A stretch of DNA of 64,000 bases from Parcubacteria group bacterium Gr01-1014_13 (GCA_007376295.1 VMGB01000001.1:80424-144423); one strand, 5' to 3'; shown: positions 2,777-41,576, numbered from the stretch's first letter. The notes: generated from the letters alone by a model not told the origin. Numbers and translations: made by a program.

Positions 2777-3105
2777 ATAGCCAACATAGCCCGTACATCC
2801 GGGTTCATTCTGTCTGCAGTCCAGGCCGGTTCCCAAACGAGGTTTATGGATACTTTTTCTACATCAGGAATTTCTTCGGCAACTTCTTCTACCTGAGCGA
2901 TTATGCTAGGCCCGACTGGGCAGCCCATGCTAGTAAACGTCATAGTAATTTCGACGCAGCCGTCTTTAATATCTACATCATAAATTAATCCTAAATCCAC
3001 AATACCAACCCCTAATTCCGGGTCAATTACATTGTTAAGCAGCGCCCAATATGGTTGGGTGCGTTGTTCGGGAGGAACAGGAAATTGTTTAGCTTTTTTT
3101 GTCAT
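2773..3105 (-). CDS. DUF59/SufT-like Fe-S cluster assembly protein
   Basis: 'DPELGVGIVDLGLIYDV' is the DUF59 (MIP18/SufT) signature. It is the last gene of the suf operon. Confidence 0.6.
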   Translation of the reverse strand: MTKKAKQFPVPPEQRTQPYWALLNNVIDPELGVGIVDLGLIYDVDIKDGCVEITMTFTSMGCPVGPSIIAQVEEVAEEIPDVEKVSINLVWEPAWTADRMNPDVRAMLAI

Positions 3106-3463
3106 ACAAATTTAATGCTTTTTTTAAGGTAGATAATCCAAGTAATGCGCATTTTACCCGTCCTGGGCTGATAGGCACATGCAAAAGATCATATACTTTG
3201 GCCGCTTTTAATTTTTTTAGGCTAGAAATTTTTTTACCACCAATTTCGTCAGCCAGCAAAGACATAGCTGCTTGGCTAATAGCACAACCAGTGCCCACAA
3301 ATCCAAGATCTTCCACAACTCCATTTTTGATTGTTAGTTCAAGTGAAATTTTATCACCACAAAGAGGATTATCTTCGGTAACTTTTATTGTGGGATTGGA
3401 AATACTTCCGGCATGATGCGGATGTTGGTAATGGTCCAGAATTGTTTCGGAATAAATATCCAT
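3089..3463 (-). CDS. sufU: SufU/IscU-type Fe-S cluster scaffold protein
   Basis: 'NPLCGDKISLEL' and 'GTGCAISQA' are conserved scaffold Cys motifs. It sits immediately downstream of sufS. Confidence 0.75.
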   Translation of the reverse strand: MDIYSETILDHYQHPHHAGSISNPTIKVTEDNPLCGDKISLELTIKNGVVEDLGFVGTGCAISQAAMSLLADEIGGKKISSLKKLKAAKVYDLLHVPISPGRVKCALLGLSTLKKALNLYDKKS

Positions 3464-7497: not shown

Positions 7498-7623
7498 AAA
7501 AGTGGTAATTTTCAAGCAATCTTTTCTCTCACTATATACGAAAATAACTCAGACGTCAATGGTATGAGTTAAAACAAAAAAGAACGGACAAGACCGCTCT
7601 TCTTTGTATTTTTACACTAAAAA

Positions 7624-7905
7624 TTACATTTTGTGCTCTGTTCCACAATTGCATCCGCCAGGACCGCAATTGCAACCGCTGCCGCTGCCATCTTTGGAGC
7701 ACATCTTGCATTTGCCCATGCATAGCATCATAAGGGCTGATAAGCCTACCAAAATGTAGACTACTCTCTCTACCATTGGCCAGTTGCCCAATAGAGCATT
7801 TACCAGATTCCAGTTAAAAGCGCCTACTAAACCCCAGTTTAATGCTCCAACGAGCACCAATAGCCAGGACACTTTGTGTCCGTGACACATTTTTTTCATC
7901 ATCAT
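7624..7905 (-). CDS. DUF378-family small membrane protein with Cys-rich (metallothionein-like) C-terminal tail
   Basis: 'LLVLVGALNWGLVGAFNWNLVNALLG' is the DUF378 core. The tail 'CMGKCKMCSKDGSGSGCNCGPGGCNCGTEHKM' has 8 Cys in 30 residues. Confidence 0.55.
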   Translation of the reverse strand: MMMKKMCHGHKVSWLLVLVGALNWGLVGAFNWNLVNALLGNWPMVERVVYILVGLSALMMLCMGKCKMCSKDGSGSGCNCGPGGCNCGTEHKM

Positions 7906-7960
7906 AAATGATGGTTAAGAATAAAAAGGTATTATACCACGTTTTTGGGTAGATAGGTAC

Positions 7961-17605: not shown

Positions 17606-19345
17606 TTATTTAACCTTTGATCCAAATTTTTGTCCGGAATCATCGGACCGAAGTGCGTTGTTTAAAGGCGCGTGAGAGAGATTGAATTTTTTACCGATAA
17701 ATTCATCGGTTGCCGAAAATTGCAACGAATTTGTCAGTAGAATGTTTTGTCCTATTTGCGCAACTGAAGGAGTAACAGAAACTTCAAAGTATAAACCCGT
17801 CTGGCTATTGGCTGGCAAAGTATTGTATCTCCAAGAAATGGTTCGGTCGGCATTGTTGTAATCTAATTGCGGACCTATAGAGGTGCTTTGTTTGCCGGTG
17901 AATTCTACACCCACTGGCAAGGAGGTGCTAAAAGTAGCTTCGTTAATCGCATTGGTAGTGTTGGTAATTTTTACAAGAATCCAGTATTTAGTCGTCTTTC
18001 CAACTCGCGGAGGCAATGGCCCGCGGCCCAGCTGGTCGCCTTCGGCAGTGTAATAGCGGGTTTCAATATCAAAATCAACTTCGGTAGCCAGTGGTATACG
18101 GGCACGTGAGCCGTCCTGGCTAAACTGTTGACCCGGAGCTTCGCTGACATGGCCTTTTACTGCAGGATATATTTCTAAATTGATTTTTTCTGCCTCGGAT
18201 AAATTAAAACTTGGTAATAAATAAATTTTTACAGTAAATGTATCGGCGCTTCCTGGGTTGCCGTTGCTAAGCTGGGTTCTGGAACTGCTATCAAAAAATA
18301 TCCCAGTTGTTTCTACCTTTGCGCCATTTTCTCTGGCTGTCTTTTTCCAATCGACTACGCTTTGTAAATTTGAAGACAAGTGAAGGGTGATGTTTTGTAA
18401 TTTAAAATCGCTTTTGTTCTGCCATTTTATTTCTATAGGTAAAGCTTGGCCCGGTTCGGCATATCCAGAATTCTCTAACGATCTGGCGTTAGAAATTACT
18501 TGCGGAGCAAAGACGCGCAATTCTTTGGTGGCCGGGGCCTGCGGCACAACATGATTATTGATTATAACTTGTGGGGTGACGCTAAAGGTAAAACTTCCGG
18601 ATTTATTTGGCGTTACAAATTGTCCTTCAATAACCTTGCTGCTGCCAGCCGAAAGCAAGATATTTTTGGTTTCTTTCTCACTCATTACATCCGCATTCCA
18701 ATTATTGATAACGGATATATTATTTACTTCACGGTTGCTGGAATTGGTAAGAGTGTAAGTAAATTTAATATTGGCATTAGGCAAAGTGGATGTAGTCATG
18801 GTTAATTTGCCGGCCAAAACACTGTCAGGCATGCGCGAAACAAAAGAAGACAACTTTTGTTCCCGGCCGGGATTGTTTTCCGGTTCATACGATAAGTTGG
18901 CAATTAACAACTCTTCTTTATTTGGTTCGCTCCAAAACCAGCCGTAAATTTCCGCTTGGCCAGTAGCACCAGCCTTTATTTCTTTGATAGCCGGGAAGAT
19001 AAAGTCATCAGAGAAAGTGTCTTTTGAAGTTTTGCTTCGGTCGATTATGAAGCCCTCTGGCAAATGTAGGGCCAAAGATACGTTGTTTAATTTAAATTTA
19101 CTTTTATTTTTATATTTTATTGTCAGATAAACTTCTTGTCCGCTTTTTATCCGTTCATTGCCCAGAGACATTGATACATCAATCGAGGTTGTGAGGCTTG
19201 GTTTCCAAAGCCACAAAAACATTGTGCTGCCAAGCAGGATTAGGGAAAAAGCAAACAGAGCCAAATCAAAAATGAATAGTTTTTTGGCGTGTTGGTAGTT
19301 ATTATGGTACCGTTTGCGGTAGTGACCTTTTAAAAATTTGAGCAT
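17606..19345 (-). CDS. large membrane-anchored extracellular protein with repeated beta-rich (DUF11/CARDB-like) domains
   Basis: N-terminal TM anchor 'LFIFDLALFAFSLILLGSTMFLWLW'. Long Ser/Thr/Asn-rich extracellular region with internal repetition. Confidence 0.45.
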   Translation of the reverse strand: MLKFLKGHYRKRYHNNYQHAKKLFIFDLALFAFSLILLGSTMFLWLWKPSLTTSIDVSMSLGNERIKSGQEVYLTIKYKNKSKFKLNNVSLALHLPEGFIIDRSKTSKDTFSDDFIFPAIKEIKAGATGQAEIYGWFWSEPNKEELLIANLSYEPENNPGREQKLSSFVSRMPDSVLAGKLTMTTSTLPNANIKFTYTLTNSSNREVNNISVINNWNADVMSEKETKNILLSAGSSKVIEGQFVTPNKSGSFTFSVTPQVIINNHVVPQAPATKELRVFAPQVISNARSLENSGYAEPGQALPIEIKWQNKSDFKLQNITLHLSSNLQSVVDWKKTARENGAKVETTGIFFDSSSRTQLSNGNPGSADTFTVKIYLLPSFNLSEAEKINLEIYPAVKGHVSEAPGQQFSQDGSRARIPLATEVDFDIETRYYTAEGDQLGRGPLPPRVGKTTKYWILVKITNTTNAINEATFSTSLPVGVEFTGKQSTSIGPQLDYNNADRTISWRYNTLPANSQTGLYFEVSVTPSVAQIGQNILLTNSLQFSATDEFIGKKFNLSHAPLNNALRSDDSGQKFGSKVK

Positions 19346-19384
19346 AATTCTAGACCGTATTATATAACTTTTGTTTGTTTTTTA

Positions 19385-19422
19385 CAAACCAAAACCCTCC
19401 GTTGAGGAGGAGGGTTTAAAAA
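19385..19422 (-). terminator. rho-independent terminator for the HTH gene (minus strand)
   Basis: Hairpin AACCCTCC...GGAGGGTT; the T-run is on the minus strand. Confidence 0.5.
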
Positions 19423-19423
19423 A

Positions 19424-19771
19424 TTATTTTTCAGGGTTTTCTTCATCCTCTGGTTCCTTTTCAGTTTCTTTAGTAACAACAATTTTTGGGTTAGGGGAGT
19501 AGAGAGGATTTTTTATTTTCCAGTTTCCTACAAATTGGCCAATACCTTTGTTTTCTAATTTGTTTTTTAAAGTTGTATGTCTTTGCGACCACTTCACCAA
19601 ACTCTCAAAGTTTAATTTGTATCTACCTGCAACAATTATATATGTAACTTCTTGAGCGGTAATGGCGCGTCTTATGGTTTGAGCATTAACACCAAAAAGC
19701 TTAGCCGCTTCTGATATAGATACACGTATTACTTCTTTTGGCTTTTCATTTGTGTCAGCTTGATCGATCAT
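19424..19771 (-). CDS. excisionase/MerR-superfamily helix-turn-helix DNA-binding protein
   Basis: 'ISEAAKLFGVNAQTIRRAITAQEVTYIIVAGRYKLNFESLVKW' fits the excisionase-family HTH. Start set at ATG 19771 ('MIDQ...'). ORF-track start 19801 and ATG 19789 lie inside operator copy 1. Confidence 0.55.
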   Translation of the reverse strand: MIDQADTNEKPKEVIRVSISEAAKLFGVNAQTIRRAITAQEVTYIIVAGRYKLNFESLVKWSQRHTTLKNKLENKGIGQFVGNWKIKNPLYSPNPKIVVTKETEKEPEDEENPEK

Positions 19772-19778
19772 AACGTTG

Positions 19779-19803
19779 TTTGTATACATTAGTGTATACA
19801 AAT
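19779..19803. promoter_or_regulatory. operator-like palindrome copy 1 (TTTGTATACAtTAGTGTATACAAAT, one central mismatch)
   Basis: First of three near-identical 25-26 bp inverted repeats. Abuts the HTH gene start. Confidence 0.55.
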
Positions 19804-19971: not shown

Positions 19972-20253
19972 TAAGTCGTATTTTAGTTTAAAAATGTTCG
20001 ACAAGTTAACAGGTTAAACCCTGCTTAAGTATCGGGGATCATTGTAGCTTAATCGGAAGTTCAAACACCCTCACTTTTGATAGGTATATTTAGGTACATA
20101 TATAATGTAATAAATTTGACCTAAATATGGGTTTCTGATAAACTGCTTATCACCCCGCTATGTACTGACTTATCGCTAGAAAAGGGCGAATTATGTGTAA
20201 TTAGGGTATATATAGGTAGGTGTAACATTATTGCTCACTTTACGTCTACTATA

Positions 20254-20835
20254 ATGTCCAGAAGCAACTTCAACGAAAAACTCCTACTTTTAAAGCTTCG
20301 TACGACAGAAGATCCTGAAGCTTTCGCTAAGTTATATGATATCTATGCAAAACGTATCTATAGCTTTGTTTTTTTTAAAGTTTCAAATCGTGAGGAAGCA
20401 GAGGATATAACATCGGAAGTTTTTCTAAAAGCTTGGCGGTATATAAATGAGAAAAAGAAAATAGAAAGTTTTAGCGGTCTGCTTTATAGATTAGCGCGCA
20501 ATTGCGTGATCGATCTATACCGATCAAGATCAAAACAAAAAGAAACCTTGTCGATTGATACGGAAATAACGATAGAAATTGGCGATGCTGGAAAATGGAA
20601 AGAAGATTTGGGAGAAGAGATAGTGAATAAGCTGGAGATGCAAAAAATAGTGGGAGCCTTACAAAAAATGAAACAAGAATACAGAGAAGTGGTAACCCTG
20701 AGATATGTAGATGAATTGGAAGTAAGCGAGATTGCCGAAATTACCGGCAAAGGACATATAGCAGTCAGAGTAACTTTGCACCGGGGTTTAAAAAAACTTA
20801 AAGAACTATTAAAAGAACAGCCAGCGGTTGAATAA
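20254..20835 (+). CDS. ECF-type RNA polymerase sigma factor (sigma-70 regions 2 and 4)
   Basis: Region 2 'LYRLARNCVIDLYRSR'. Region 4 HTH 'EYREVVTLRYVDELEVSEIAEITGKGHIAVRVTLHRGLKKLKE'. Confidence 0.8.
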   Translation: MSRSNFNEKLLLLKLRTTEDPEAFAKLYDIYAKRIYSFVFFKVSNREEAEDITSEVFLKAWRYINEKKKIESFSGLLYRLARNCVIDLYRSRSKQKETLSIDTEITIEIGDAGKWKEDLGEEIVNKLEMQKIVGALQKMKQEYREVVTLRYVDELEVSEIAEITGKGHIAVRVTLHRGLKKLKELLKEQPAVE

Positions 20836-20840
20836 AAATT

Positions 20841-22181
20841 ATGTCCCGTGACTTAATTAAACAACTTAAATCTCTGAAACAGGCAGAGGTAAGACCAAGC
20901 GAGAAGTGGTTGAAAAACAACCGCGAGCTTTTGTTGTCCCAAATTAAAAACACGGTTACTCCAAAAGAAAAAACTAAATTTAATTTTGAAACTGTCTGGC
21001 AAGCAATGTCCATATTTTTGCCATATTCATTTGTACACAAAGTTGTACGCCCAATAGTTGTGCTTTTGCTTGTAGTTGGTATGGGTATCAGCAGCTGGGT
21101 AGTAGCAGCTAGCGCCTCTTCCGAATCTTTGCCTGGCGAATGGCTTTATTCCGCCAAGAGAGTAGCAGAAAAAACTCAGGTCATAATGGCCGATGTGGTA
21201 GGGGATACAAATGGCTCCACAATGTTGCATGTTGAATTTGCTAAACGAAGAGCGGAAGAAACCAGAGACATTGTTTCTCAAAATGACCCGTCTAAAATTG
21301 AAATAGCCGCTCAAACAGTTAGTGATCTAAAAGAAGAGATGCGAACTGTCAGTACTAAATTGGAAGAAATAAAGACAACTCAGGATTCAAAAGCGGAAAT
21401 GGCTCAAAACATAAATCAAAATGCTCAAGAAATAAAGGATGTTTTAAAAGAAGTAAAAGTAAATCTTTTGACTAACTCTGACACTACTAGCAGCAGTGAT
21501 GATTTGTCTGCTCAAGTTTCTGAAGTAAAAAATTTAGCCAAAGATACTGCGGTAAGAGCTGTAGAAATTATGGTTGAAAAACATTTACAAGGAGATACAA
21601 CTGTTTCTAAAGACGATGTTAAACAAGCTATAAACGTTCAATTGCAATCTGCTATTAAAGATGCGAATGACTCCAAACAAAGCGTTGATGAAGTAAATAA
21701 AGTATTGGGTGTAGTAAAAACAGAAGTAGATGGTTTAGCCCATGATGCTAAGGGAACGGATTTAGTAAGCACTACCCAAGCATTGTCCGATAAAATTGAC
21801 GCTACTTCCAAACAGACTCAGGCCGCAGTTAGTAGTACCAAACAATTTAATGTTGTAGCCGGTAAAACAGTTGATGAAGGACAGATGTTGTTGTCTCAAG
21901 ATAATTTAACTTCGGCTGTGGATAAAATTAAAGAAGCAAACACTGCCACTACTCAATCCGAAAAAATTACCGATGATACTTTGAAAGCAGTGCAAAATGT
22001 TCTGCCAGTTGTAGCTGTGGCTACAGATGCGCCGATTGTTTCCACCACCGTTGTTCTTGCTACCACGACAAGCAGCAGTTTGAATATCATATTAAGCGTA
22101 TCTACAACTATAAAAATCACTACATCCACTCCGGCGATGGTGATTTCTAGTAGCACCGGTTTAACCACTACAAAAAAATAA
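20841..22181 (+). CDS. anti-sigma-factor-like single-pass membrane protein (DUF5667-like extracytoplasmic domain) with long coiled-coil C-terminal region
   Basis: Starts 5 nt after the sigma-gene stop. Short cytoplasmic N-domain, TM 'IVVLLLVVGMGISSWVVAA', then 'LPGEWLYSAKRVAEK' (resembles the DUF5667 N-motif, from memory). T/S-rich C-terminal tail. Confidence 0.5.
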   Translation: MSRDLIKQLKSLKQAEVRPSEKWLKNNRELLLSQIKNTVTPKEKTKFNFETVWQAMSIFLPYSFVHKVVRPIVVLLLVVGMGISSWVVAASASSESLPGEWLYSAKRVAEKTQVIMADVVGDTNGSTMLHVEFAKRRAEETRDIVSQNDPSKIEIAAQTVSDLKEEMRTVSTKLEEIKTTQDSKAEMAQNINQNAQEIKDVLKEVKVNLLTNSDTTSSSDDLSAQVSEVKNLAKDTAVRAVEIMVEKHLQGDTTVSKDDVKQAINVQLQSAIKDANDSKQSVDEVNKVLGVVKTEVDGLAHDAKGTDLVSTTQALSDKIDATSKQTQAAVSSTKQFNVVAGKTVDEGQMLLSQDNLTSAVDKIKEANTATTQSEKITDDTLKAVQNVLPVVAVATDAPIVSTTVVLATTTSSSLNIILSVSTTIKITTSTPAMVISSSTGLTTTKK

Positions 22182-22395
22182 AAAATAATTTTCTTTTTCT
22201 TTGGTATGGAATCCGGACTCAGTCGGGATTGCACACGAGAGAGAAAGGAAAAAAGTTAATCACGGTTTTTGCATCAGGTCGAGGGCTCATAAAGAGCTCG
22301 CAAAACCATTGTATCCCCACACGGGGAAAAACTTTGGTCTTAGTGACGTCATATTAAGTGATGCGCATAAGATCAAGGAATAAATAATTTAAATT

Positions 22396-25300
22396 ATGAG
22401 CGATGTATTAAAATTCGGGAAGAAAGTCTTCACGTCCAGTGTCGTCGGCGCCACTATGTTGTGGTCTGTCGGCGTTTCTGCATTGTTGCCAGCTGTTGCT
22501 AACGCTGCAGTTTGCCCAGCAATGAGTTCAGGAGACATGGTAAAGGTATCTGGAAAACCAGCTATCTATTCTGTGAACAACTCAATGAAGATTCTATATT
22601 TCCCTTCAGGTGATGAATTCAAGAGTTGGACTAGCCTTTCAGCAACTGCCCCTAATCAGTATGCTTCCCAAGGTTATCTAACAATCACTCAAGATTGTTT
22701 CGATTCTTTATCAGTTCCTAGCACATACCCAGGTGGCGTAAACTTCCGCCCAGGTTCATACGTTGTCAAGAGACCTTCTTCTGATCAATTGTATGTTGTA
22801 TTGCCAGGCAACAGTCTAGCTAAAATTAGCTCAACTGATGCTAAAGCTTTATACGGAACTAACTACAAAGTAATGACTGTTGCCGATGCTTTCTGGCCTC
22901 ACTATGTAAATAGAGGAGCCGATGTTGCTGGTACAGTTCATGAAGGTATGTTGGTAAGTAATGACGGCAAAACTTGGTATGTAGATGCTGGTATGAAATT
23001 ACGAGAAGTAACAGCTGCAGGCATGACCGCAAACAGATTCAAAGCTGGTTGGGTTCACGCTGTTCCAGCTTCTTACTTAGCAGGCACTTCAGTTGGTGCT
23101 ATGCTTGATTCAATGGAATCTACTTTAACTAACAGAACTCAGGACGGAGCTGTGACTCCAGGTCCAGCCCCAGTTGGCGGAAACCTAACTGTTTCTTTGG
23201 CCGCTGATAATCCAGCTGCTGCCAATTTAGCAGATGGTTCTGCTTACAACAGTGTCTTAAAATTAAACTTAAGAGCTGGTTCAGCAGCCACTAATGTTAC
23301 AGGAATTACTTTGACTAAGACTGGTTTAATTGCTAATACCAATATAACCGGCGTTAGTGTTTGGGATGCTCAAGGCAATCGCCATGGCGATGTTATGAGT
23401 TCTTTAACTTCTGACAACAAGGTAACTGTAAGTTTCGGCTCTTACCCAATCATGGTAGCCGCAGGTGGTTCTGAATCATTACTAGTTGCAGTAAATATCG
23501 CCACCACTGCTAACTCCGGTTTAGTTGGCTTCAATGTGAATGCTGCTACCGATATTATGAGTAATGGCACTGCTGGCGGATCATTCCCAATCGTTGGTAA
23601 CCAGATGTCTATCATTGACGGCAATGCCTCTTTGGGCGCTTTCACCGTTACTGGTCAGTCCGTTGGTGGTTCTGCCAACCAACCAGCTAGCACTGCTGCT
23701 GGAAACTTAAATATTGGTGACTTACAAAAAGAAGTTGCTAAATTTAGATTTACCGAAACTAGCGGCAATGAAGATCTGACAGTTTCCCGGTTGACTTTCT
23801 ATGCAGCTGGTACTATCCAAGACAGCGACTTAGCTAACATCAGCGTATACGGACCGGATGGCGCTTTGCTTGGCAATGGCGGTAGTTTGAGTAACCGTTA
23901 TGTAACGGTTAAATTCGCTACTTCATACGTTGTGCCAAAGAGCACCAACCGAGATCTCTCTGTAAAAGTTGACGTTATAAACGGTTCAACCCGCAATTTC
24001 AATATCCACTTACAGAGCGACTACGACATGCTAGTAAAAGGCAATACTACCGGATTCTTCATCTTACCTACCAGCTTTACCGATACAACCAGCACTAGCG
24101 CTTGGTTTAATATGGGTTCTGGTACCTTGACTGTAAACAAGACCCCAAGTTCTCCAGCTGGAAACATTTCCTCTGGCGCATCAAATGTTGTTTTGGCTAG
24201 ATTCGATGTTAAAGCCACTGGCGAAAACATGGAATTACGCAAGATGGGTCTTGGTATCAACAGAGGTAATGGATCTGTGTTAGCCTTAACAGGTAATGTT
24301 ACTGTTCGTGACGCTTCAGACGGAACTGTATATTTGACAGTTGCTGCGTCAACTGCGGATCTATACACTCCAGCCGCAGCTCAGCGTAACTTATCAAGCT
24401 ACATTAACCTTACTGCTAATCAGACAAAGACATTGGAAGTAATTGGTAGTGTTAACACAACCGCAACTTCTGGAAACAGCTATATAGTAGGAGTTGGTAA
24501 TTTCTATGCGAAGAGAGCTTCGACATTAGACTTTGCTGATAACCTGCCAAACAGCACTAACACCAGCACAGCTGCCAACCAATTAACAGTTAGCGCAACT
24601 TCGCTAACCTGCAACAGAGACACAGCTATGGGTAGCGTTACCCGCGCTGCTGGTACTACTTCAGTTATCGCTCAGTACATTTGTACAGCCGGTACCTCCG
24701 AAGATGTTCGCTTGAGCAATACCAATATTAACTTTGGTCCAGTTTCAGGCGGAACTGCTGCTAGCACATTCCAAAACATGTCGCTTTGGAACGGATCTAC
24801 TCAATTGGGTACAACTATAAGCACCGTTGCTTCCTCTTCTAACTCTTATAGTTTTGATCTTACTGTTCCAAAGAACGGAACTGTAATGTTACAGGTAAAG
24901 GCGTTGATTGTTTCCGGAGCAACCGCAGTAGTAACCACTTCCTTTGGAAGTTATAACTTTAACGGTAAAGATAGTGGAACTGCCGGAACTGGTAACCCAG
25001 TAGCCGGTCAGCAAGTCACTGTTGGATCCGGTAACTTATATATTACTGCTGTATCCGATGCTACAACCATTGGAAAGATTTACGGTCCTTCTCAAGCAAG
25101 TGTACAGTTAGGCAAGTGGAAATTCACCGCTACTAACGATGACATTACTTTGAAAAAGTTGACCTTAACCTCTCGCAATGCGCACGTTACCGGCGGAGAC
25201 CAGACTGCGTTGGGTACATTTGGCACACTATCCTTATACGATGGTTCAACCAAATTAGCTGATGCTAGTTATGTCACCGGTGACGTAGTATTTACTGGCT

Positions 25301-26157
25301 TTAGCGCTTCCATCCCAATGGATAGTTATAAAGTCTTTACACTAAAAGGCGGTACAACTGCTTCTGGTGTAATCTCCAGTAACACCACTACGGTCTTCGT
25401 TGTGAAGAGCGACAGCAATACAGATATGGAAGCCATGTCTTCCGCTGGTTCATTGTTGGGAACTGCAGATATTTCTGCAACTTCCTCTACAAGCAACAGT
25501 CTTGCTGAAACCAGATTTGCCACATCCACCCAGTACTTCTTCCATGATGCTTACCCAACTATGGTAGCCACATCACTTGGAAGCTCGCTAGGTTTGGATA
25601 CTACAGCTCAAATCCTTAAATTCACCATTACCAATTCCGGTACTCGTGACTTAAGATTTGGTTCAAGTACAATCGCAGTCAGCGTATCTGGCTTGCAAGG
25701 CAATTCAGGTCCTACCGCATCTAGTGGTACGATCAGAGGCTTCAGATTGTATGAAGAGGGCGCCCCTGGTACATTGGGAACACGTCTCGCCGGTGGTACT
25801 GCTAACGATTCCGCTGATGTGGTAATCGCTTCAAGCACTGCCAGCCCTTCAAACGTAACCTTTGACCCGACCAATGATGTAAACAGCCTGTTGGATAACT
25901 TTGTTATCTCTCCAGGTTCTAGCAGAACATTGATCGTTACTGCCGACACCTCCAATATGGGTACTACAAAGACAGCGGGAACTTCTGTGACCGTGTCTGC
26001 GAAGATCTCCGGTTCAACCGGTTGGAGCGGCACAGCTTGGAACACAGGTAACTTGTTCTACTACTACACTGCAGTAGGTGGTACTGAGAACACAGTTCCT
26101 TTCACTCACTCAGATTCTTACGATGTACAAGGTTCAACAATGAGCCGGTCCTTCTAA
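22396..26157 (+). CDS. giant (1253 aa) secreted cell-surface protein, Cys-free, Thr/Ser/Gly/Ala/Asn-rich with repeated Ig-like segments (S-layer/adhesin-like)
   Basis: Signal peptide 'VVGATMLWSVGVSALLPAVANA'. Extreme compositional bias, no Cys, recurring 'LT..T..GT' beta-strand-like repeats. Strong terminator follows. Confidence 0.6.
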   Translation: MSDVLKFGKKVFTSSVVGATMLWSVGVSALLPAVANAAVCPAMSSGDMVKVSGKPAIYSVNNSMKILYFPSGDEFKSWTSLSATAPNQYASQGYLTITQDCFDSLSVPSTYPGGVNFRPGSYVVKRPSSDQLYVVLPGNSLAKISSTDAKALYGTNYKVMTVADAFWPHYVNRGADVAGTVHEGMLVSNDGKTWYVDAGMKLREVTAAGMTANRFKAGWVHAVPASYLAGTSVGAMLDSMESTLTNRTQDGAVTPGPAPVGGNLTVSLAADNPAAANLADGSAYNSVLKLNLRAGSAATNVTGITLTKTGLIANTNITGVSVWDAQGNRHGDVMSSLTSDNKVTVSFGSYPIMVAAGGSESLLVAVNIATTANSGLVGFNVNAATDIMSNGTAGGSFPIVGNQMSIIDGNASLGAFTVTGQSVGGSANQPASTAAGNLNIGDLQKEVAKFRFTETSGNEDLTVSRLTFYAAGTIQDSDLANISVYGPDGALLGNGGSLSNRYVTVKFATSYVVPKSTNRDLSVKVDVINGSTRNFNIHLQSDYDMLVKGNTTGFFILPTSFTDTTSTSAWFNMGSGTLTVNKTPSSPAGNISSGASNVVLARFDVKATGENMELRKMGLGINRGNGSVLALTGNVTVRDASDGTVYLTVAASTADLYTPAAAQRNLSSYINLTANQTKTLEVIGSVNTTATSGNSYIVGVGNFYAKRASTLDFADNLPNSTNTSTAANQLTVSATSLTCNRDTAMGSVTRAAGTTSVIAQYICTAGTSEDVRLSNTNINFGPVSGGTAASTFQNMSLWNGSTQLGTTISTVASSSNSYSFDLTVPKNGTVMLQVKALIVSGATAVVTTSFGSYNFNGKDSGTAGTGNPVAGQQVTVGSGNLYITAVSDATTIGKIYGPSQASVQLGKWKFTATNDDITLKKLTLTSRNAHVTGGDQTALGTFGTLSLYDGSTKLADASYVTGDVVFTGFSASIPMDSYKVFTLKGGTTASGVISSNTTTVFVVKSDSNTDMEAMSSAGSLLGTADISATSSTSNSLAETRFATSTQYFFHDAYPTMVATSLGSSLGLDTTAQILKFTITNSGTRDLRFGSSTIAVSVSGLQGNSGPTASSGTIRGFRLYEEGAPGTLGTRLAGGTANDSADVVIASSTASPSNVTFDPTNDVNSLLDNFVISPGSSRTLIVTADTSNMGTTKTAGTSVTVSAKISGSTGWSGTAWNTGNLFYYYTAVGGTENTVPFTHSDSYDVQGSTMSRSF

Positions 26158-26205
26158 TGAGTTTGTTAGAGAAGAAAGAGTGCTAATGAGCAATTGTTAG
26201 TACGA

Positions 26206-26247
26206 CCAAACAACCCCTCGCCAATTTGGCGGGGGGTTTTGGTTTGG
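26206..26247 (+). terminator. rho-independent terminator (CCCCTCGCC-AATTT-GGCGGGGGG + TTTTGGTTTGG)
   Basis: 9-bp G/C stem plus T-tract. The upstream A-tract 'CCAAACAA' mirrors it (bidirectional potential). Confidence 0.7.
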
Positions 26248-26338
26248 CTGGTTGGCTATGAAACTTGACAATTTAGCTAATTTATAGTATAGTTTCAACA
26301 CTTTCTGCCCCAGTTAGGCAGATTTTTAAATTATATTT

Positions 26339-28144
26339 ATGCAAATCAGAAACGTCGCAATTATCGCCCACGTAGACCACGGCAAAACCACGCTCGTGGA
26401 TGCTTTGTTGCGTCAATCCAAAACTAAATTGGGTAAAGAACTGGTTGATCAAGAGACTATCATGGATAGCAATGATTTAGAACGTGAACGCGGTATCACT
26501 ATTTTTTCTAAAAACGCTTCTATAGAATGGCAGGATACCAAGATAAATATTATTGATACTCCTGGCCACGCCGATTTTGGCGGTGAAGTAGAAAGAGTTC
26601 TCAAGTTAGCCGATGGTTGTTTGCTTTTGGTTGATGCCAAAGAAGGCCCGATGCCGCAGACTAGATTTGTGCTTAAAAAAGCTTTGCAGATGGGGCACAA
26701 AATTATTGTGGTGATAAATAAGATAGATAAACCAGGTGCTAGACCAGCTTGGGTTTTGGATAAAACCTTTGATTTATTCGTCGATTTGGGCGCTAGTGAT
26801 GAGGTGGCTGATTTTCCAGTTATCTATGCTTCAGCCAAACAAGGCAAAGCTGGGCTTACTCCGGATTTAGAAGCGATGACCGACATCACTCCGATTTTTG
26901 ATACTGTTTTGAAATTTATTCCGGAACCAAAAGTAGATCCAAATGCGCCGCTACAAATTTTGATTACCACTATTACCGGTGATGATTTTAAAGGCAGAAT
27001 TGCTACTGGCAGAATATATAACGGTGTAATAAAAACCGGCCAAGATATAATGCATATCAATCGCGAAGGCAAAATGACAAAATGCCGCGTGATGGCGCTC
27101 ATGACTTTTTTTGGCTTGGAAAGAATAGAAGTTAAAGAAGCGGTAGCCGGAGATGTGGTGGCGATTGCCGGAATTCCGGAAATAAATATTGGTGAAACAA
27201 TTGCGGATTTAAATAACCCGATTGCTTTGCCATTGTTAAATGTGGAAGAACCGACTGTAAAAATGACTTTTTCCGTGAATGATTCTCCGTTTGCCGGCAA
27301 GGAAGGTCAGTTCACAACTTCCAGACAAATTAGAGAAAGATTATATAAGGAATTGGAAACAGACATGGCGCTGAAAGTAGAAGATGGTCTTGATGGTGGC
27401 TGGATAGTTTCTGGCCGCGGTGAATTGCATTTGGCCATTCTTATTGAACGTCTGCGCCGCGAAGGTTATGAATTACAGGTTTCTCGTCCGCAAGTAATTG
27501 TGAAAGAAATTGATGGCAAGAAAATGACTCCTTATGAACAGGTATTTATTGAAGTACCAGAAGCAAGTTCTGGATCTGTAATTCAAAAATTGGGCAGCCG
27601 ACATGGCGAGATGCGGGAAATGCGAACGGAAAATGGAATTGTTTTCTTGGAATTTATTATCCCTACCCGTGGATTGTTTGGTTATCGTACTGAATTTCTT
27701 ACTGACACACGCGGTTTGGGACTTATTAACACTATTTTCTATCAGTACATGCCAGATCCGGGCAGTTGGCGCGAACGCGAACAAGGTTCGCTAGTGGCGC
27801 ATGAAACCGGTACAAGTAATTTGTACGGTTTGCTTAACATTCAAGATAGGGGACAGTTATTTATTGGTCCGGGCTCAGCGGTATACAAAGGCCAAGTTGT
27901 TGGTCAAAACGCGCGCAGTGAAGATATTCGCGTAAATGTTTGTAAAGAAAAACAACTTTCCAATATGCGTTCCAAAGGTGATGGTGTTTCTGAACACTTT
28001 AATGCTCCAAAAACTATGGGGCTAGAGGACGCGTTGGAATATATCGGTGATGATGAACTAGTTGAAATAACTCCAAAAAATGTTAGAATTAGAAAGGTGA
28101 TCTTGGACGAAAATGAAGCCAAAAGAAAAGCGAGAGGAATGTAA
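26339..28144 (+). CDS. typA: translational GTPase TypA/BipA
   Basis: G1 'AIIAHVDHGKTTL', G3 'DTPGHADF', G4 'NKID'. ~600 aa with EF-G-like domains but short. Confidence 0.9.
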   Translation: MQIRNVAIIAHVDHGKTTLVDALLRQSKTKLGKELVDQETIMDSNDLERERGITIFSKNASIEWQDTKINIIDTPGHADFGGEVERVLKLADGCLLLVDAKEGPMPQTRFVLKKALQMGHKIIVVINKIDKPGARPAWVLDKTFDLFVDLGASDEVADFPVIYASAKQGKAGLTPDLEAMTDITPIFDTVLKFIPEPKVDPNAPLQILITTITGDDFKGRIATGRIYNGVIKTGQDIMHINREGKMTKCRVMALMTFFGLERIEVKEAVAGDVVAIAGIPEINIGETIADLNNPIALPLLNVEEPTVKMTFSVNDSPFAGKEGQFTTSRQIRERLYKELETDMALKVEDGLDGGWIVSGRGELHLAILIERLRREGYELQVSRPQVIVKEIDGKKMTPYEQVFIEVPEASSGSVIQKLGSRHGEMREMRTENGIVFLEFIIPTRGLFGYRTEFLTDTRGLGLINTIFYQYMPDPGSWREREQGSLVAHETGTSNLYGLLNIQDRGQLFIGPGSAVYKGQVVGQNARSEDIRVNVCKEKQLSNMRSKGDGVSEHFNAPKTMGLEDALEYIGDDELVEITPKNVRIRKVILDENEAKRKARGM

Positions 28145-39135: not shown

Positions 39136-39159
39136 GCTAAAAATACGAAATATATTAAA

Positions 39160-39196
39160 AAACCGACCCTGTGGATAACTCGGTCGGTTTTTGTAT
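39160..39196 (+). terminator. rho-independent terminator (AACCGACC ... GGTCGGTT + TTTTG)
   Basis: 8-bp stem, T-tract. Confidence 0.6.
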
Positions 39197-39240
39197 TGGG
39201 TATATTTTGGCTAACCTATCACATTATTTGCCCAAAGCCC

Positions 39241-39268
39241 TTGACAAAACAATCAAAATGTGATAAAC
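39241..39268 (+). promoter_or_regulatory. putative promoter (TTGACA-16-TGTG-ATAAAC) for the high-GC gene
   Basis: Consensus -35 and a TG-extended -10-like element about 60 nt upstream of the GTG start. Confidence 0.35.
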
Positions 39269-39329
39269 TGCGACCTCAAGCTAGGGATTTACCCAAAGGC
39301 TTGAGATAACCCCGTTTCGGAGGATAACT

Positions 39330-39752
39330 GTGAAGAATTTGCTCATTTCTCTACTCATCTTGACCGTCACGATCTCGTTCCAACCGGCTTACGCCGACGG
39401 GTATGGGCTCGGGCGGGCCGAACTAAACAAGGTTCTCGAGCCTCTCCGGTCCAGCATCAACCGTTGCTACCTCGCCAATGCAGGTGAGCGCGGCGGTCGT
39501 CTGGATCTCACGCTCGAAATCAGCCGCTACGGCTCGGTGTACACTACTGATGTTTCTACACCAGATCTGCGCAACAAGTTCGTCGCGCGCAAGATCAGCG
39601 CCTGCGTTCGAGGTATCGTCAAGGACTTGGCGTTCCCGACACGCAAAGCAGCGACTACATCCAAGTTCTCGTACATCTTTCATAAGGCACGCTCCCCAGG
39701 CGATGGCCCGCAGCTAAGCTGCTGGAATCCCCGCGGTTGTCCGGGTAAGTAG
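39330..39752 (+). CDS. high-GC secreted protein with AgmX/PglI-C (TonB-C-like) domain; probable horizontally acquired gene
   Basis: G+C is conspicuously higher than flanks (by eye, not computed). GTG start with SD GGAGG. Signal peptide 'LLISLLILTVTISFQPAYA'. Pattern 'INRCY..G.LDLTLEIS..GSV...VS....FV..ISACV..V.DLAFP' recalls the Myxococcota-type AgmX/PglI C-terminal domain (from memory). Own promoter and terminator. Confidence 0.55.
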   Translation: MKNLLISLLILTVTISFQPAYADGYGLGRAELNKVLEPLRSSINRCYLANAGERGGRLDLTLEISRYGSVYTTDVSTPDLRNKFVARKISACVRGIVKDLAFPTRKAATTSKFSYIFHKARSPGDGPQLSCWNPRGCPGK

Positions 39753-39779
39753 CCAATATAACAAGTTGGCCACGACCCA

Positions 39780-39807
39780 AGGCTCCTTAACCAGGAGCCT
39801 ATTTTTT
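39780..39807 (+). terminator. rho-independent terminator (GGCTCCT-TAACC-AGGAGCC + T7)
   Basis: Perfect 7-bp stem followed by TATTTTTTT. Confidence 0.7.
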
Positions 39808-39849: not shown

Positions 39850-39876
39850 TTATCACTCGTAAGGTTTGAGTGATAA
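39850..39876. promoter_or_regulatory. CIRCE-like HrcA operator (TTATCACTC-N9-GAGTGATAA)
   Basis: 9-bp inverted repeat with 9-nt spacer, one position off the canonical TTAGCACTC-N9-GAGTGCTAA in each arm. Ends 6 nt before the hrcA ATG. Confidence 0.75.
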
Positions 39877-39881
39877 TTTGT

Positions 39882-40562
39882 ATGGATAGCCGTAAAGAAA
39901 AAATTTTAAATTTAGTTATAGAAAATTATATCGCCAATGCTGAGCCGGTTGGCTCCAAATTTTTGGTATCAATCGGAGATTTAGATCTTAGCGAAGCTAC
40001 TGTGCGCAATGAACTGCGCGCTTTAGAAGAAGAAGGCTATCTTACTCATCCGCATACTTCAGCTGGCCGTATCCCGACAGAAAAGGGCTATAGATATTAT
40101 ATTAAAAACCTCAATTTGGCTAAAAGCCAGATTTCCAAAAATGATAGCAAAGTTTTAGAAAATTCTTTGGACAAAGCTACTGATCAAGAATTGGCTTTTA
40201 AAAATATGGCTAGGACAATGGTAGAGTTGTCTAATGAAACAGTAGTCATTGCTTTTTCTCCGGAAAATATATACTATACTGGCTTGTCTAATCTTTTTAA
40301 CAAACCAGAATTTGATCGGTTAAGTCTGATAGCGGACATTTCCGAAGTTTTCGACAACTTTGAAGATTCTTTGGAAGGTTTTTTTGAAAAAGTAGATAGT
40401 AATCCACAGTATTTTATCGGTGATGAACATCCGTTTGGAGAAATGCTTAGTGTTTTATCTATGCGGTTTGGTAAGGATGGTTTGGTAGCGATTTTGGGAC
40501 CTAAGAGAATGGATTACAGATACAATTTTGGTTTGATGAAAAAATTATTGGAATTAATTTAA
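39882..40562 (+). CDS. hrcA: heat-inducible transcription repressor HrcA (short form)
   Basis: 'REKILNLVIENYIANAEPVGSKFL' winged-helix N-terminus and 'GYLTHPHTSAGRIPTEKGYRYY'. Start set at ATG 39882; the GTG at 39870 lies inside CIRCE. Confidence 0.8.
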   Translation: MDSRKEKILNLVIENYIANAEPVGSKFLVSIGDLDLSEATVRNELRALEEEGYLTHPHTSAGRIPTEKGYRYYIKNLNLAKSQISKNDSKVLENSLDKATDQELAFKNMARTMVELSNETVVIAFSPENIYYTGLSNLFNKPEFDRLSLIADISEVFDNFEDSLEGFFEKVDSNPQYFIGDEHPFGEMLSVLSMRFGKDGLVAILGPKRMDYRYNFGLMKKLLELI

Positions 40563-40566
40563 AATT

Positions 40567-41058
40567 ATGTCTGACGAACAAGAAAAAATTAACGAAGAGT
40601 TGCCAGGCGAACTTGATATCGCCAAGGCACAAGCTGAGGAATACAAAGCTAATTGGCAACGGGCTTTGGCTGATTACCGAAATTTACAAAAAGAAACAGC
40701 AGCCATGCGATCCCAGTGGGCGCAGATGAGTGAAGAGCAGATTTTACAGAATTTTATTCCGGTTTACGAAAATTTTAAAAAAGCGTTTAGCGCTAATCTG
40801 CCAACAGGCGATAACGAAAAGCAGTGGCAAAGCTGGAAACAGGGAATAGAATATATAATGAAGCAATTTCGTGATGTGCTGAAAGGTTATAATGTACAGG
40901 AGATAAAAACAGTGGGAGAAAAATTTGACCCACGTCTACATGAAGCGATTAGTGAAGAGGATGGCGCTGACGCGGGGGTTATTATAAAAGAAGTAGAGGG
41001 TGGATATAAAATGGGGGACAAGGTTATTAAACCGGCACGGGTGGTTATTAGTAAATAG
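40567..41058 (+). CDS. grpE: nucleotide exchange factor GrpE
   Basis: Coiled-coil N-half 'YRNLQKETAAMR...' and beta-domain C-half. Position is between hrcA and dnaK. Confidence 0.85.
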   Translation: MSDEQEKINEELPGELDIAKAQAEEYKANWQRALADYRNLQKETAAMRSQWAQMSEEQILQNFIPVYENFKKAFSANLPTGDNEKQWQSWKQGIEYIMKQFRDVLKGYNVQEIKTVGEKFDPRLHEAISEEDGADAGVIIKEVEGGYKMGDKVIKPARVVISK

Positions 41059-41076
41059 TCTAATTAAAAATTAAAT

Positions 41077-41553
41077 ATGGAAAAATATCAAAAATATAAT
41101 TTAAGTTTACAGCTAGTAGTTTGGATTAGCGCTATAGTAATTGGTGCTTTTCAAATTAGTATAAATAACCGATTAAAAAATTTGCAAGATGTTGTAGCTA
41201 TTTTTGCTGTACCAGATGATGGGGCAATCCAAATTCACAATGTCGGTAAGGTTAATTTATATTTACACAAATTTGAGTTACCGGGTAAGGTGCATAATTT
41301 TGAAAGACCGAGGCTGTTGCCAGCCGGGACAGGTAATAGCGCATATAATTGGGTTCCTTTGCCCACAGGTTTAAAGGATGGCGAGGAGTTTGATTTTAAA
41401 CTTTATCTGACTGACAATTTTAATAATAAATGGATTGCAGAAATGGGTGGAAAAATGGGGATGAAAACGTCTGTTATTAATGGAAAGGAACAAAAATTAC
41501 CTATATTTATCGTATGGTCTTATCAAACTTATAAAAAAGACTGGAATTTCTAA
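41077..41553 (+). CDS. hypothetical membrane-anchored protein inserted between grpE and dnaK
   Basis: N-terminal TM 'LQLVVWISAIVIGAF'. No recognisable family. Confidence 0.4.
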   Translation: MEKYQKYNLSLQLVVWISAIVIGAFQISINNRLKNLQDVVAIFAVPDDGAIQIHNVGKVNLYLHKFELPGKVHNFERPRLLPAGTGNSAYNWVPLPTGLKDGEEFDFKLYLTDNFNNKWIAEMGGKMGMKTSVINGKEQKLPIFIVWSYQTYKKDWNF

Positions 41554-41576
41554 GTAATTAATAAATAAATATTCAT

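Follow-up and report, generated by a model that had tools for sequence, protein, structure and literature searches.

The 214-nt gap in front of a gene for a 1253-aa surface protein contains a structured RNA that is undescribed and has no known family. It was found in Parcubacteria group bacterium Gr01-1014_13, a Magasanikbacteria-type CPR genome, in a window (the whole stretch of DNA that was analysed) of 64 kb, and it is kept in about 60 related genomes with six covarying helices. We hold with moderate confidence that the gap acts in cis as a structured RNA, namely a 5' leader or, if the locus yields one transcript, an intercistronic segment, with its first hairpin, P1, marking an end and with recognition by a factor. 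The leader RNA probably sets the amount of surface protein made. The original prediction is partly confirmed as an observation and partly supported in its interpretation: a riboregulator is plausible, given a conserved structured RNA with covariation, while the promoter and attenuator roles suggested for the same region did not hold.

The locus and its proteins

The locus comprises three co-directional genes on the + strand, as had been predicted. The sigma gene (20254–20835, 193 aa) is followed after 5 nt by the DUF5667 gene (20841–22181, 446 aa) and, after the gap of 214 nt (22182–22395), by the surface-protein gene (22396–26157, 1253 aa); both gap sizes agree with the earlier values. The sigma / DUF5667 / giant-protein architecture is kept in more than 45 loci, and the DUF5667 gene adjoins the sigma gene in all loci whose upstream region is included. 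An intrinsic-terminator-like hairpin followed by a T-run (26212–26238, + strand) is the probable 3' end of the surface-protein transcript, and it accounts for the end coordinate of 26247 given originally. After it, a promoter candidate TTGACA-17-TATAGT (26265–26293) may serve typA/bipA (26339–28144).

The 193-aa protein contains Sigma70_r2 and Sigma70_r4_2 only, according to Pfam, and matches TIGR02937, the ECF superfamily model of NCBIfam, with 84.3 bits at a cut-off of 42.9. None of the ECF subfamily models reaches its own cut-off, and the nearest solved relative is SigW of B. subtilis (5wuq, E 7e-20). Judged by its domains, it is an ECF (group IV) sigma-70 family factor, and the earlier ECF call stands.

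The sigma gene is preceded by an ECF-type promoter TGTAAC-N16-CGTC (20221–20246, + strand), whose 3' end lies 7 nt upstream of the ATG. It is the sole match in the window, with 0.12 expected, and in 35 loci it occurs once per locus, upstream of sigma. The distance to the sigma ATG is identical in 33 of these 35, and in L012 and L022 the promoter lies about 100 nt farther upstream. As the promoter ends so close to the ATG, the sigma mRNA probably has little or no leader, and it is probably autoregulated: we infer that the sigma factor itself uses this promoter, with its AAC-type −35 and CGT-type −10 elements. Farther upstream are two overlapping candidate promoters of the housekeeping type, TTGATA-18-TATAAT and TTGACC-17-TAAACT (20077–20144, + strand); many related loci have, by eye, TTGAC-N17-TAnnAT at a comparable distance 5' of sigma. 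The search for a conserved ECF promoter in the locus was thus successful, but in front of sigma only and never in the leader, near which even relaxed patterns give nothing, so that the leader does not appear as an ECF target promoter.

The 446-aa protein carries a DUF5667 domain (Pfam, 33.3 bits at a cut-off of 27) and one hydrophobic segment at about aa 63–93, in agreement with the predicted membrane-anchored, DUF5667-like partner. Its layout is a short cytoplasmic N-terminus, the transmembrane segment and, outside the cytoplasm, the DUF5667 domain, followed by a helical region and a tail rich in Thr and Ser. The anti-sigma label given to it comes from context alone: Pfam finds DUF5667 and detects no anti-sigma domain of the class I ASD / zf-HC2 type, NCBIfam yields no match, and there are no PDB relatives at E≤10. 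Its putative role as an anti-sigma or sensor partner is based on the 5-nt gap, the conserved adjacency and the single transmembrane segment.

The 1253-aa protein has a signal-peptide-like N-terminus ending in ANA, consistent with the predicted secretion. At about aa 45–250 there are three PlyCB/EccB-like beta-beta-beta-alpha repeats, putatively binding the cell wall, followed by tandem beta-sandwich (cohesin/Ig-like) domains. The protein is a candidate for an S-layer or cell-wall-anchored type. The protein had been described as Cys-free, but it has four cysteines, C40, C101, C739 and C763, the first two being at least 90% conserved across the family.

The second sigma/partner pair noted originally (44584–45890) is indeed present, appended to the hrcA-grpE-dnaK-dnaJ operon. 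It has neither a long leader nor a copy of the leader RNA. Hence the module is recurrent at the protein level, but not at the RNA level.

Fold and conservation of the leader RNA

The leader (22182–22395) has a minimum free energy of −74.8 kcal/mol on the + strand, compared to −42.2 ± 4.2 kcal/mol in 200 dinucleotide shuffles (z −7.83); for the reverse strand z is only −2.89. This is the most extreme folding among the 13 long intergenic regions of the window, and the remark that there is more structure here than a plain promoter needs is well founded. Other leaders of this genome are mostly short, this one being among the few long ones. The fold spans about 190 nt: P1 comes first, then P2/P3 with an invariant bulge, then P4, and last P5/P6, whose internal loop is conserved. 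All four hairpins quoted in the original prediction are present, each inside a larger element.

P1 is a hairpin of 63 nt (22189–22251, + strand), its 5' arm, UUUUCUUUUUCUUU, being rich in pyrimidines and its 3' arm, GAGAGAGAAAGGAAA, in purines. The quoted hairpin AATCCGGAC..GTCGGGATT (22210–22230) exists, but is merely its tip. The upper stem and the loop vary among relatives, and conserved U-G pairs are compatible only with RNA of the + strand. In most loci P1 starts 0–17 nt past the DUF5667 stop codon. Downstream of it there is a run of A instead of U, and 22252–22263 is a single-stranded A/U-rich linker with a conserved GUUAAU/GUUUAU motif at 22255–22260.

The core module consists of P2 (22264–22272 with 22300–22307), which encloses a 10-nt asymmetric bulge, AUCAGGUCGA (22273–22282), and P3 (22283–22299, loop nAUAn), the latter being the quoted element GAGGGCTC..GAGCTCGC. 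In the bulge, all 38 sequences of alignment A4 share A-GUCGA (consensus A(A/G)GUCGA). A AAAGGCCGAG variant of the core is seen in L053, L054 and L082.

The core is followed by a conserved junction AUUGUA (22308–22313) and by P4 (22314–22327), a variable hairpin UCCCC-ACAC-GGGGA that corresponds to the CCCC-ACAC-GGGG hairpin noticed earlier and reaches about 90 nt in some relatives. The outer helix P5, CUUUGGUCUUA / UAAGAUCAAGG (within 22332–22378), encloses P6 (22348–22362), and the internal loop between them is conserved as YGA(C) (22344–22347) and (G)CGCA (22363–22367). GAC and GCGCA are joined by a pair between the C of the former and the first G of the latter, as CG in 25 sequences and UA in four. 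The sequence TGACGTCA (22344–22351), listed originally as a palindrome, is there, but it is not a site of its own, as it covers the internal loop and the start of P6. All these elements are on the + strand, as is the final unstructured A/U-rich stretch AAUAAAUAAUUUAAAUU (22379–22395) just before the start codon. This is likely the ribosome landing site; Shine-Dalgarno sequences are scarce in this genome, with any such motif seen in 11 of 65 genes. No conserved pairing between the linker and this stretch was found, duplexes in cis being weaker than those of mismatched pairs (−1.5 versus −2.15 kcal/mol).

Covariation across relatives, proposed earlier as a check, is strongly positive. Compensatory changes in P1, P3 and P6 are visible already in alignments made by MAFFT only. 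With the covariance model R1, 92.3% of the cells in 59 distinct sequences are paired, as against 67.1% in shuffles and 45–54% in slid controls, these pair counts being biased towards the structure because the alignment was fitted to it. None of 500 shuffles is as paired as the observed alignment. Double (compensatory) changes are found in 40 of the 41 modelled pairs: in P1 in all 12 (about 92% of cells paired), in P4 in all four (93.5%), and many in both P2 (88–98%) and P3 (98.6%); P5 and P6 are paired in 84.8% and 95.4% of cells. In addition, about 30 unpaired nucleotides are conserved across several junctions.

Each locus has exactly one leader RNA, always abutting the start of the orthologous surface-protein gene, and in about 60 loci its structure ends at a fixed position, 17–22 nt upstream of the AUG. 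It is still present where the proteins encoded downstream share only about 31% identity. Of 41 genome loci with a measured gap, 40 have 148–365 nt, and L039 has 840 nt. In L002, L053, L054 and L062, inserted genes or MITEs separate the leader from DUF5667, and hence the leader does not need to be tightly coupled to the gene upstream. There are no copies elsewhere in the window or at the 10+ paralogue loci. At gathering thresholds, Rfam 15 identifies two tRNAs in the window and nothing for the leader; at E≤10 the leader yields chance-level matches (at most 18 bits against thresholds of 34–171), and leaders of distant loci have no match.

Ends of the message and function of the leader

No terminator-like stem with a T-run occurs in 22182–22395, such sites being found at 26212–26238 and elsewhere, and the suggested attenuator, lacking a G+C-rich hairpin with a U-run, is not borne out. 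There is neither a conserved −35 element upstream of P1 nor a conserved sigma-70 promoter motif inside the leader. A/T-rich −10-like hexamers often precede P1.

Single-gene contigs with the surface-protein gene recur in several assemblies, a hint that its product may be abundant. Independent short contigs contain only this gene and the leader. Contig L057 begins at the 5' foot of P1, L074 begins in the P1 loop, and L058, L059–61 and L068 begin 0–18 nt past P1. The ends of L059–61, from three assemblies, are ragged, with 3' ends at the terminator hairpin. Such starts may possibly be the 5' ends of the surface-protein mRNA. Some contig breaks have other causes, since L062–66 end in a repeated MITE-like element and L020, a genome-bin contig, ends 21 nt upstream of P1.

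In the mechanism that we propose, the ECF sigma factor would transcribe its own operon from TGTAAC-N16-CGTC, and the surface-protein message would arise by read-through from the sigma transcript and a cut near P1 or, alternatively, from a weak A/T-rich promoter ending at the P1 foot. The mature mRNA would carry P1 at its 5' end as a mark or a protection, so that the surface protein could be made at a high and stable level independently of the low output needed for sigma and its membrane partner, as in operons of the papBA type. A putative trans-acting factor, most likely a protein, would recognise the A(A/G)GUCGA bulge as well as the YGA/CGCA internal loop and tune stability or translation, and the 17 A/U-rich nucleotides before the AUG would stay open for ribosome loading.

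The conserved unpaired nucleotides exceed the need of a simple stabiliser, and a ligand-binding aptamer would also fit. Tentatively, and with much less confidence, the leader could represent a new RNA class that senses a ligand or a signal, either as a riboswitch or as a switch that depends on a factor; it would be restricted to Magasanikbacteria-type CPR and gate their major surface protein. If so, the RNA would act downstream of the ECF sigma / DUF5667 sensor, and minimal, host-dependent cells would have a two-layer control of the envelope, transcriptional and at the RNA level. In a bolder variant, the invariant GUCGA core would direct site-specific cleavage, freeing the surface-protein mRNA from the regulatory operon.

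Among the alternatives, a riboswitch controlling the surface protein fares best, although we consider it unlikely. The P2-bulge-P3 core would be the aptamer for a metabolite, an ion or a second messenger, with P4–P6 accessory. Many invariant unpaired nucleotides in bulges and junctions, with covarying helices of variable length on their flanks, are consistent with that, and so are the restriction of the element to the leader of a single gene class and its length in a genome of mostly short leaders. However, covarying helices with invariant junction nucleotides are equally expected of protein-binding RNAs, and no expression platform is seen, neither a terminator nor a conserved helix sequestering the start. 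Further, P5/P6 is missing in a minority of relatives (L019, L052, L028, L055), where the core survives in reduced forms and the gene context is unchanged. Finally, there is no match to Rfam riboswitches and no association with metabolic genes that would indicate a ligand.

It is improbable that the element is an independent small RNA gene, acting in trans or sequestering a protein and merely located between the genes. Its size of about 190 nt, multiple helices and conserved loops do resemble stand-alone bacterial RNAs, and P1 often has the A/T-rich −10-like hexamers upstream. On the other hand, its 3' end before the AUG has no terminator-like hairpin with a T-run, it keeps its position relative to the start codon throughout about 60 loci, it is never found apart from the surface-protein gene, and short contigs carry it together with the coding region.

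Little probability is also left for P1 being a 3' stabiliser, a pause site or a weak terminator of the sigma-DUF5667 message, with P2–P6 alone forming the leader. The proximity of P1 to the DUF5667 stop codon, the five short contigs starting right after it, and an additional terminator-like hairpin upstream of it in L004 and L007 would agree with this. However, P1 is followed by an A-run, it keeps to P2 rather than to the stop codon despite insertions (L002, L049, L062), the interval from P1 to P2 has no conserved promoter, and the whole of P1 is inside contig L057.

A self-cleaving or RNase-guiding element, the core of which would catalyse or direct cleavage of the linker after P1, is very improbable. 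Invariant nucleotides in the core and the clustering of contig 5' ends in the P1–P2 linker, seen in at least three unrelated data sets, speak for it. These ends, however, are ragged and follow the boundary of P1 instead of keeping a set distance to the core; drop-off of reverse transcriptase or coverage at a stable hairpin fits them too, and no known ribozyme family is matched. Lastly, a promoter region with chance hairpins or an inverted-repeat DNA operator, for which only the A/T-rich composition and the −10-like hexamers speak, has a negligible chance, as the folding signal is strong and strand-specific, G-U pairs are conserved, no sigma-70 or ECF motif is conserved in the leader, and the compensatory changes in nearly all modelled pairs contradict it.

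Comparison with known systems

EAR (eps-associated RNA) and kindred operon-internal RNA elements act on RNA polymerase. The leader RNA resembles EAR in being a structured RNA within an envelope-component operon with a long transcription unit downstream, but it has no Rfam match, and the 3.8-kb gene shows no sign of terminators to be bypassed.

The c-di-GMP riboswitches control adhesins and large surface proteins. With c-di-GMP-I and -II the leader shares a structured covarying fold, conserved junction nucleotides and a large secreted surface protein encoded downstream. It differs in having no Rfam match (E≤10), no terminator and no start-sequestering platform, and a single aptamer would not usually lose a module such as P5/P6.

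SigW-RsiW and FecI-FecR-FecA offer a parallel for the genes: a group IV sigma factor followed directly by a single-pass membrane protein, an autoregulatory promoter of the AAC...CGT type, and the order of sigma, membrane partner and surface protein. In contrast, the partner here is a DUF5667 protein with no detectable anti-sigma domain, the promoter lies right next to the ATG, which points to an mRNA without a leader, and the structured RNA before the third gene has no counterpart there.

The ompA 5' UTR is the long leader of an abundant envelope-protein mRNA and has a 5'-terminal hairpin. The ompA and slpA leaders are stabilisers conserved over a short range and are not known to have deep covariation or invariant bulges, whereas the RNA described here is kept in highly diverged loci, and the high abundance of its protein is putative. 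Common to all three are a 5'-terminal hairpin, a long leader, a secreted envelope-protein gene and an open ribosome-binding region. The slpA S-layer leader of Lactobacillus is cited in PMC3666127.

The P-pilus operon papBA of E. coli, an example of differential decay within an operon, is unrelated in sequence and structure: it has a single hairpin, where the present leader has six helices as well as some 30 unpaired nucleotides that are conserved, and processing of this leader is putative. The papBA transcript is cut upstream of a hairpin between the cistrons, which stabilises the mRNA of the major pilin (PMC5927463). Both loci have one or more regulator genes upstream, a major surface subunit downstream and a long intercistronic region with a stable hairpin, and a similar outcome is expected here, that is, a stable, abundant downstream mRNA with a structure at its 5' end and a terminator at its 3' end (PMC5927463).

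Organization of the three-gene unit

The ORF map agrees with the original prediction of three co-directional genes. The sigma gene (20254–20835, + strand, 193 aa) is followed, after 5 nt, by the gene encoding the DUF5667 protein (20841–22181, +, 446 aa) and, after a gap of 214 nt, by the gene encoding the giant protein (22396–26157, +, 1253 aa). A terminator-like hairpin at 26212–26238 closes the unit.

The 193-aa product contains the Sigma70_r2 and Sigma70_r4_2 domains, scores 84.3 bits on TIGR02937 (cut-off 42.9) and has SigW as its closest solved relative; judged by its domains, it is an ordinary ECF-type sigma factor. The 446-aa product features the DUF5667 domain and one hydrophobic segment (about aa 63–93). 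No anti-sigma domain was detected in it by domain and profile searches or by comparison with solved structures, and by these criteria it cannot be filed under any known anti-sigma class.

The giant protein has a signal-peptide-like N-terminus, 25% of its residues are Ser or Thr, and a pI of 5.75 is calculated for its mature form. It is probably a secreted surface protein, putatively wall-anchored. The earlier description of it as Cys-free is wrong, since it has four cysteines, two of which are nearly invariant across the family. Its sequence is identical to that of a hypothetical protein from Parcubacteria group bacterium Gr01-1014_13, which places the window in a CPR (Patescibacteria) genome. 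There are 194 detectable homologues, the relatives being mostly labelled Magasanikbacteria, and nearly all of the 120 homologues listed are about 1190–1310 aa long (range 784–1356).

A scan of genomes with this protein family yielded 52 loci. The gene order is identical in every locus with enough upstream sequence: a DUF11 protein (−), a small HTH protein (−), sigma (+), the DUF5667 protein (+), the gap and the giant protein (+), often followed by typA. Of the 41 genome loci measured, all but L039 (840 nt) have a gap of 148–365 nt between the last two genes of the unit. In the window, the genes encoding the DUF11-repeat surface protein (579 aa) and the excisionase-like HTH protein (125 aa) occupy 17606–19801 (−), divergent from sigma. 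The HTH gene lies at 19424–19801. Both genes keep synteny with the sigma module in almost every related locus, possibly as parts of one functional unit.

Structure and conservation of the leader RNA

The gap (22182–22395) is structured beyond chance. The folding energy of the + strand is −74.8 kcal/mol, compared to −42.2 ± 4.2 for dinucleotide shuffles (z = −7.83), whereas z of the reverse complement is merely −2.89. It is the most extreme of the 13 long intergenic regions in the window (recomputed z = −7.1, the next being −5.2). Two other such regions have above-average predicted structure, 39136–39329 (z = −5.2 on the + strand) and 7516–7960 (z = −3.6 on both strands); neither has an Rfam match.

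On the + strand the leader comprises hairpin P1 (22189–22251), P2/P3 with a 10-nt bulge (22264–22307), P4 (22314–22327), P5/P6 (22332–22378) and, after the latter, 17 unstructured A/U-rich nucleotides preceding the AUG. The hairpins pointed out originally are all real, but they are only fragments of these larger elements. The arrangement common to the related gaps, as seen by eye, is P1, a single-stranded linker, the P2–bulge–P3 core, AUUGUA, a variable P4 and P5/P6. In the relatives P1 is a long hairpin with a pyrimidine-rich 5′ arm and a GGAGAGAGAAA-like 3′ arm, and the linker carries GUUAAU or GUUUAU. P2 encloses the hairpin P3 and the bulge A(A/G)GUCGA, invariant in a 38-sequence alignment (A4), and the internal loop of P5/P6 is conserved as YGA(C)/(G)CGCA.

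It had been proposed to check the leader by covariation across related genomes, and compensatory changes were indeed found. In alignments made by MAFFT without structure information and then submitted to RNAalifold, double changes occur in five of the six pairs of P3, and in 18 of the 23 pairs of P1, P3 and P6 taken together. The covariance model of the full leader, R1, yields exactly one + strand match in each locus, and the match invariably ends at the start codon of the orthologous gene; this search took in the window and 52 genome loci, 33 additional loci from metagenomes or contigs, and the distant homologues L055 and L056. Among 59 distinct leader sequences, 92.3% of cells are standard pairs vs. 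67.1% in column shuffles (none of the 500 shuffles reaches the observed value), the pairing being inflated by the fact that this alignment was fitted to R1. When the 3′ partner is slid by 1–3 columns, 44.6–54.3% are paired. Double changes are seen in 40 of the 41 modelled pairs, and each of the eight helix segments has support. That the covariation signal is genuine is indicated by the MAFFT-only results as well as by the slid controls. Further, U-G and G-U pairs are conserved (at one position of P3, in 44 of the 59 sequences), and hence the signal fits a + strand RNA, not a DNA inverted repeat.

Neither R1 nor R2, the model of the core alone, finds a second copy in the 64-kb window, other copies in the flanks (about 1 Mb in total), or any copy at ten or more paralogue loci. 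What the paralogues (L040–L048, L051, L104–L112) have in common with the giant protein is confined to its N-terminal PlyCB-like repeats (aa ~40–250, 53–68% identity), to which other C-terminal parts are fused; the leader RNA is absent from all of them. The conserved + strand RNA structure is unique to the start of the surface-protein gene and contiguous with it; in the sequences compared, the motif is restricted to a CPR lineage.

P5/P6 is missing in L019, L052, L028 and L055, which keep P1 and the core. In two distant loci, the Kerfeldbacteria-labelled L053 and L054, inserted mobile genes separate the DUF5667 gene from the giant gene, and a core variant with AAAGGCCGAG is retained approximately 100–250 nt upstream of the ATG. 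Since the core survives both the loss of P5/P6 and the insertions, it appears to be the essential part, travelling with the giant gene.

Upstream of this core variant, L053 (~2400–2790) and L054 (~2790–3110) share a conserved non-coding block of about 350 nt, adjoining the inserted 23S_rRNA_IVP and GIY-YIG genes. It contains compensatory hairpins, e.g. CCACGAACGC..GCGTTCGTGG vs. CCGCCAATG..CATCGGCGG, has no Rfam match, and is perhaps an enlarged leader or else an additional structured RNA. Another feature scattered across the related genomes is a MITE-like repeat, GTCATTCTGAGCG[A/T]AGCGAAGAATC ... GGATGACA, seen in L002 (4705–4800), L025, L054 (2180–2760) and at both ends of L062–L066; it also ends several Logan contigs. 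It is inserted beside P1 and once, in L025, inside the P1 loop, the stem being intact.

The second sigma gene of the window (44584–45081) overlaps the gene of a 270-aa partner with a charged, helical-looking region and one hydrophobic stretch, which was identified by reading the sequence and lies below the hydropathy threshold of the scan; a secreted DUF5666 protein comes next. Thus the suggested recurrence of the module holds for the protein-level architecture but does not extend to the leader, as the second pair has neither a long gap nor a match to R1 or R2. This pair is appended to the heat-shock operon hrcA-grpE-(158-aa ORF)-dnaK-dnaJ (operon, sigma pair and DUF5666 gene together span 39870–46680), which ties an envelope-type sigma factor to a chaperone operon. 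Just upstream of hrcA there is a 140-aa ORF (39330–39752) with a signal-peptide-like N-terminus, its own TTGACA-type promoter and a G+C content of 57% (40% in the window), bracketed by terminator-like hairpins (flanks 39163–39195 and 39776–39806). This may be a cassette gained by horizontal transfer.

Promoters, transcript ends and the translation start

A near-perfect ECF-type promoter, TGTAAC-N16-CGTC(T)ACTATA, is situated at 20221–20246, directly before the sigma ATG. TGTAAC-N16-CGTC has no other match in the window (0.12 expected). Each of 35 loci has it once, before the sigma gene, and 33 of these loci have it at the same distance from the ATG; in L012 and L022 it lies about 100 nt further upstream. 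As CGTC ends 7 nt before the ATG (20221–20256), the autoregulated sigma mRNA is probably leaderless or nearly so. The motif never occurs in the leader in the loci compared, and relaxed patterns give nothing near 22182–22395. An ECF target promoter inside the leader is ruled out, the conserved motif being confined to the front of the sigma gene, and so is an attenuator or terminator, as no terminator-like site was found in 22182–22395. Hence the leader is not the ECF target promoter plus attenuator of the original prediction; the ECF promoter heads the three-gene unit.

P1 begins 0–17 nt past the DUF5667 stop codon in most loci. There is no conserved −35 box upstream of it, and A/T-rich −10-like hexamers have a mean score of 7.0 vs. 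5.8–6.4 at control offsets, bar one truncated offset. This weak, A/T-driven enrichment and the lack of a conserved −35 speak against a conserved sigma-70 promoter just before P1.

Several independent assemblies contain contigs of 3.9–4.0 kb with the leader and the gene only. Their 5′ ends fall 1 nt before the P1 foot (L057, L069), in the P1 loop (L074), or in the linker, 0–18 nt after P1 (L058, L068 and L059–61, the last from three assemblies with ragged ends). The 3′ ends are 30–85 nt past the stop codon and, in L059–61, at the start of the terminator hairpin. Such ends would be expected of contigs assembled from a metatranscriptome in which an abundant mRNA runs from P1 to the terminator; we take them as suggestive only. 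Other contig breaks have trivial causes, L062–66 ending in the MITE-like repeat; L020, a contig from a genome bin, breaks off 21 nt upstream of P1.

An SD-like motif precedes only 11 of the 65 genes in the window; for most genes the leader is short and A/U-rich sequence precedes the start. Promoter-like −10 boxes at 7–20 nt from the ATG are numerous, e.g. at 17606–19345 (−), 34930 and 54669. Given the few SD motifs and the proximity of these boxes to the ATG, genes of this genome would seem as a rule to have A/U-rich start regions and a short leader or none. Hence the 17 A/U-rich nucleotides before the giant gene are a normal start site; the exceptional part of its start context is the long structured leader. 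No conserved pairing occludes the start region of the giant gene; an estimate of RBS accessibility (0.46 vs. 0.32) is uninformative.

Three further readings were considered and rejected. The SD/anti-SD reading of the P1 arms was set aside, SD sequences being scarcely used in this genome. A helix between the linker GUUAAU and the pre-AUG stretch, predicted by the window MFE, is ruled out, as the cis duplexes are weaker than mismatched ones. A pseudoknot joining the bulge (GGUCGA) to the YGAC loop is contradicted by three observations: the C of GAC has a covarying partner in the first G of GCGCA, the GGCCGA variant of L053 retains UUGAC with no compensation, and the bulge is retained in lineages without P5/P6.

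Possible role of the leader

The likeliest reading, which we hold at about even odds, is that the gap encodes a cis-acting leader or intercistronic RNA setting the surface-protein output post-transcriptionally. P1 would define or protect the mature 5′ end of the surface-protein mRNA, which may arise by processing of the sigma–DUF5667–surface-protein transcript or from a weak promoter at the P1 foot. The abundant structural product would thereby be uncoupled from the low-level regulators, as described for papBA (PMC5927463). The invariant bulge and the internal loop may be recognition sites for a factor.

A riboswitch, which the conserved junctions would fit, is an unlikely alternative in view of the missing expression platform and the loss of P5/P6 in some lineages. 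We assign still lower, and equal, probability to two other readings: an independent small RNA, at odds with the absence of a terminator and the fixed distance to the AUG, and the assignment of P1 to the upstream message as a 3′ element, at odds with P1 staying with P2 when insertions occur. The clustering of contig 5′ ends in the linker might indicate a self-cleaving or processing element, but these ends are ragged, and we deem this quite improbable. Chance or a DNA operator, contradicted by the covariation, hardly deserves consideration.

The leader RNA is tied to what looks like the main envelope protein of these CPR bacteria. The CPR (Patescibacteria) are uncultivated and have tiny genomes; to our knowledge, their gene regulation is almost uncharacterised, and we know of few deeply conserved structured RNAs of ~190 nt in such genomes. 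The leader provides a testable handle on cell-surface control in episymbiotic bacteria, on what the ECF sigma/DUF5667 module regulates, and on RNA action via processing or ligand sensing. Few promoter/sigma assignments can be put forward in the lineage, and TGTAAC-N16-CGTC, conserved and abutting the ATG, provides one of them.

The leader has no match in Rfam 15, even at E ≤ 10, which rules out known RNA families as its identity; by this search it is outside every Rfam family and the motif is new. The literature on DUF5667, Magasanikbacteria S-layers and CPR structured RNAs yielded nothing, and no publication on the leader RNA was found. The motif could join RNA family databases and so allow annotation of the locus in metagenomes. 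A structured mRNA leader within an operon of a regulator and a major surface protein is a known type of arrangement; compared with known stabiliser hairpins, however, this RNA is far more elaborate.
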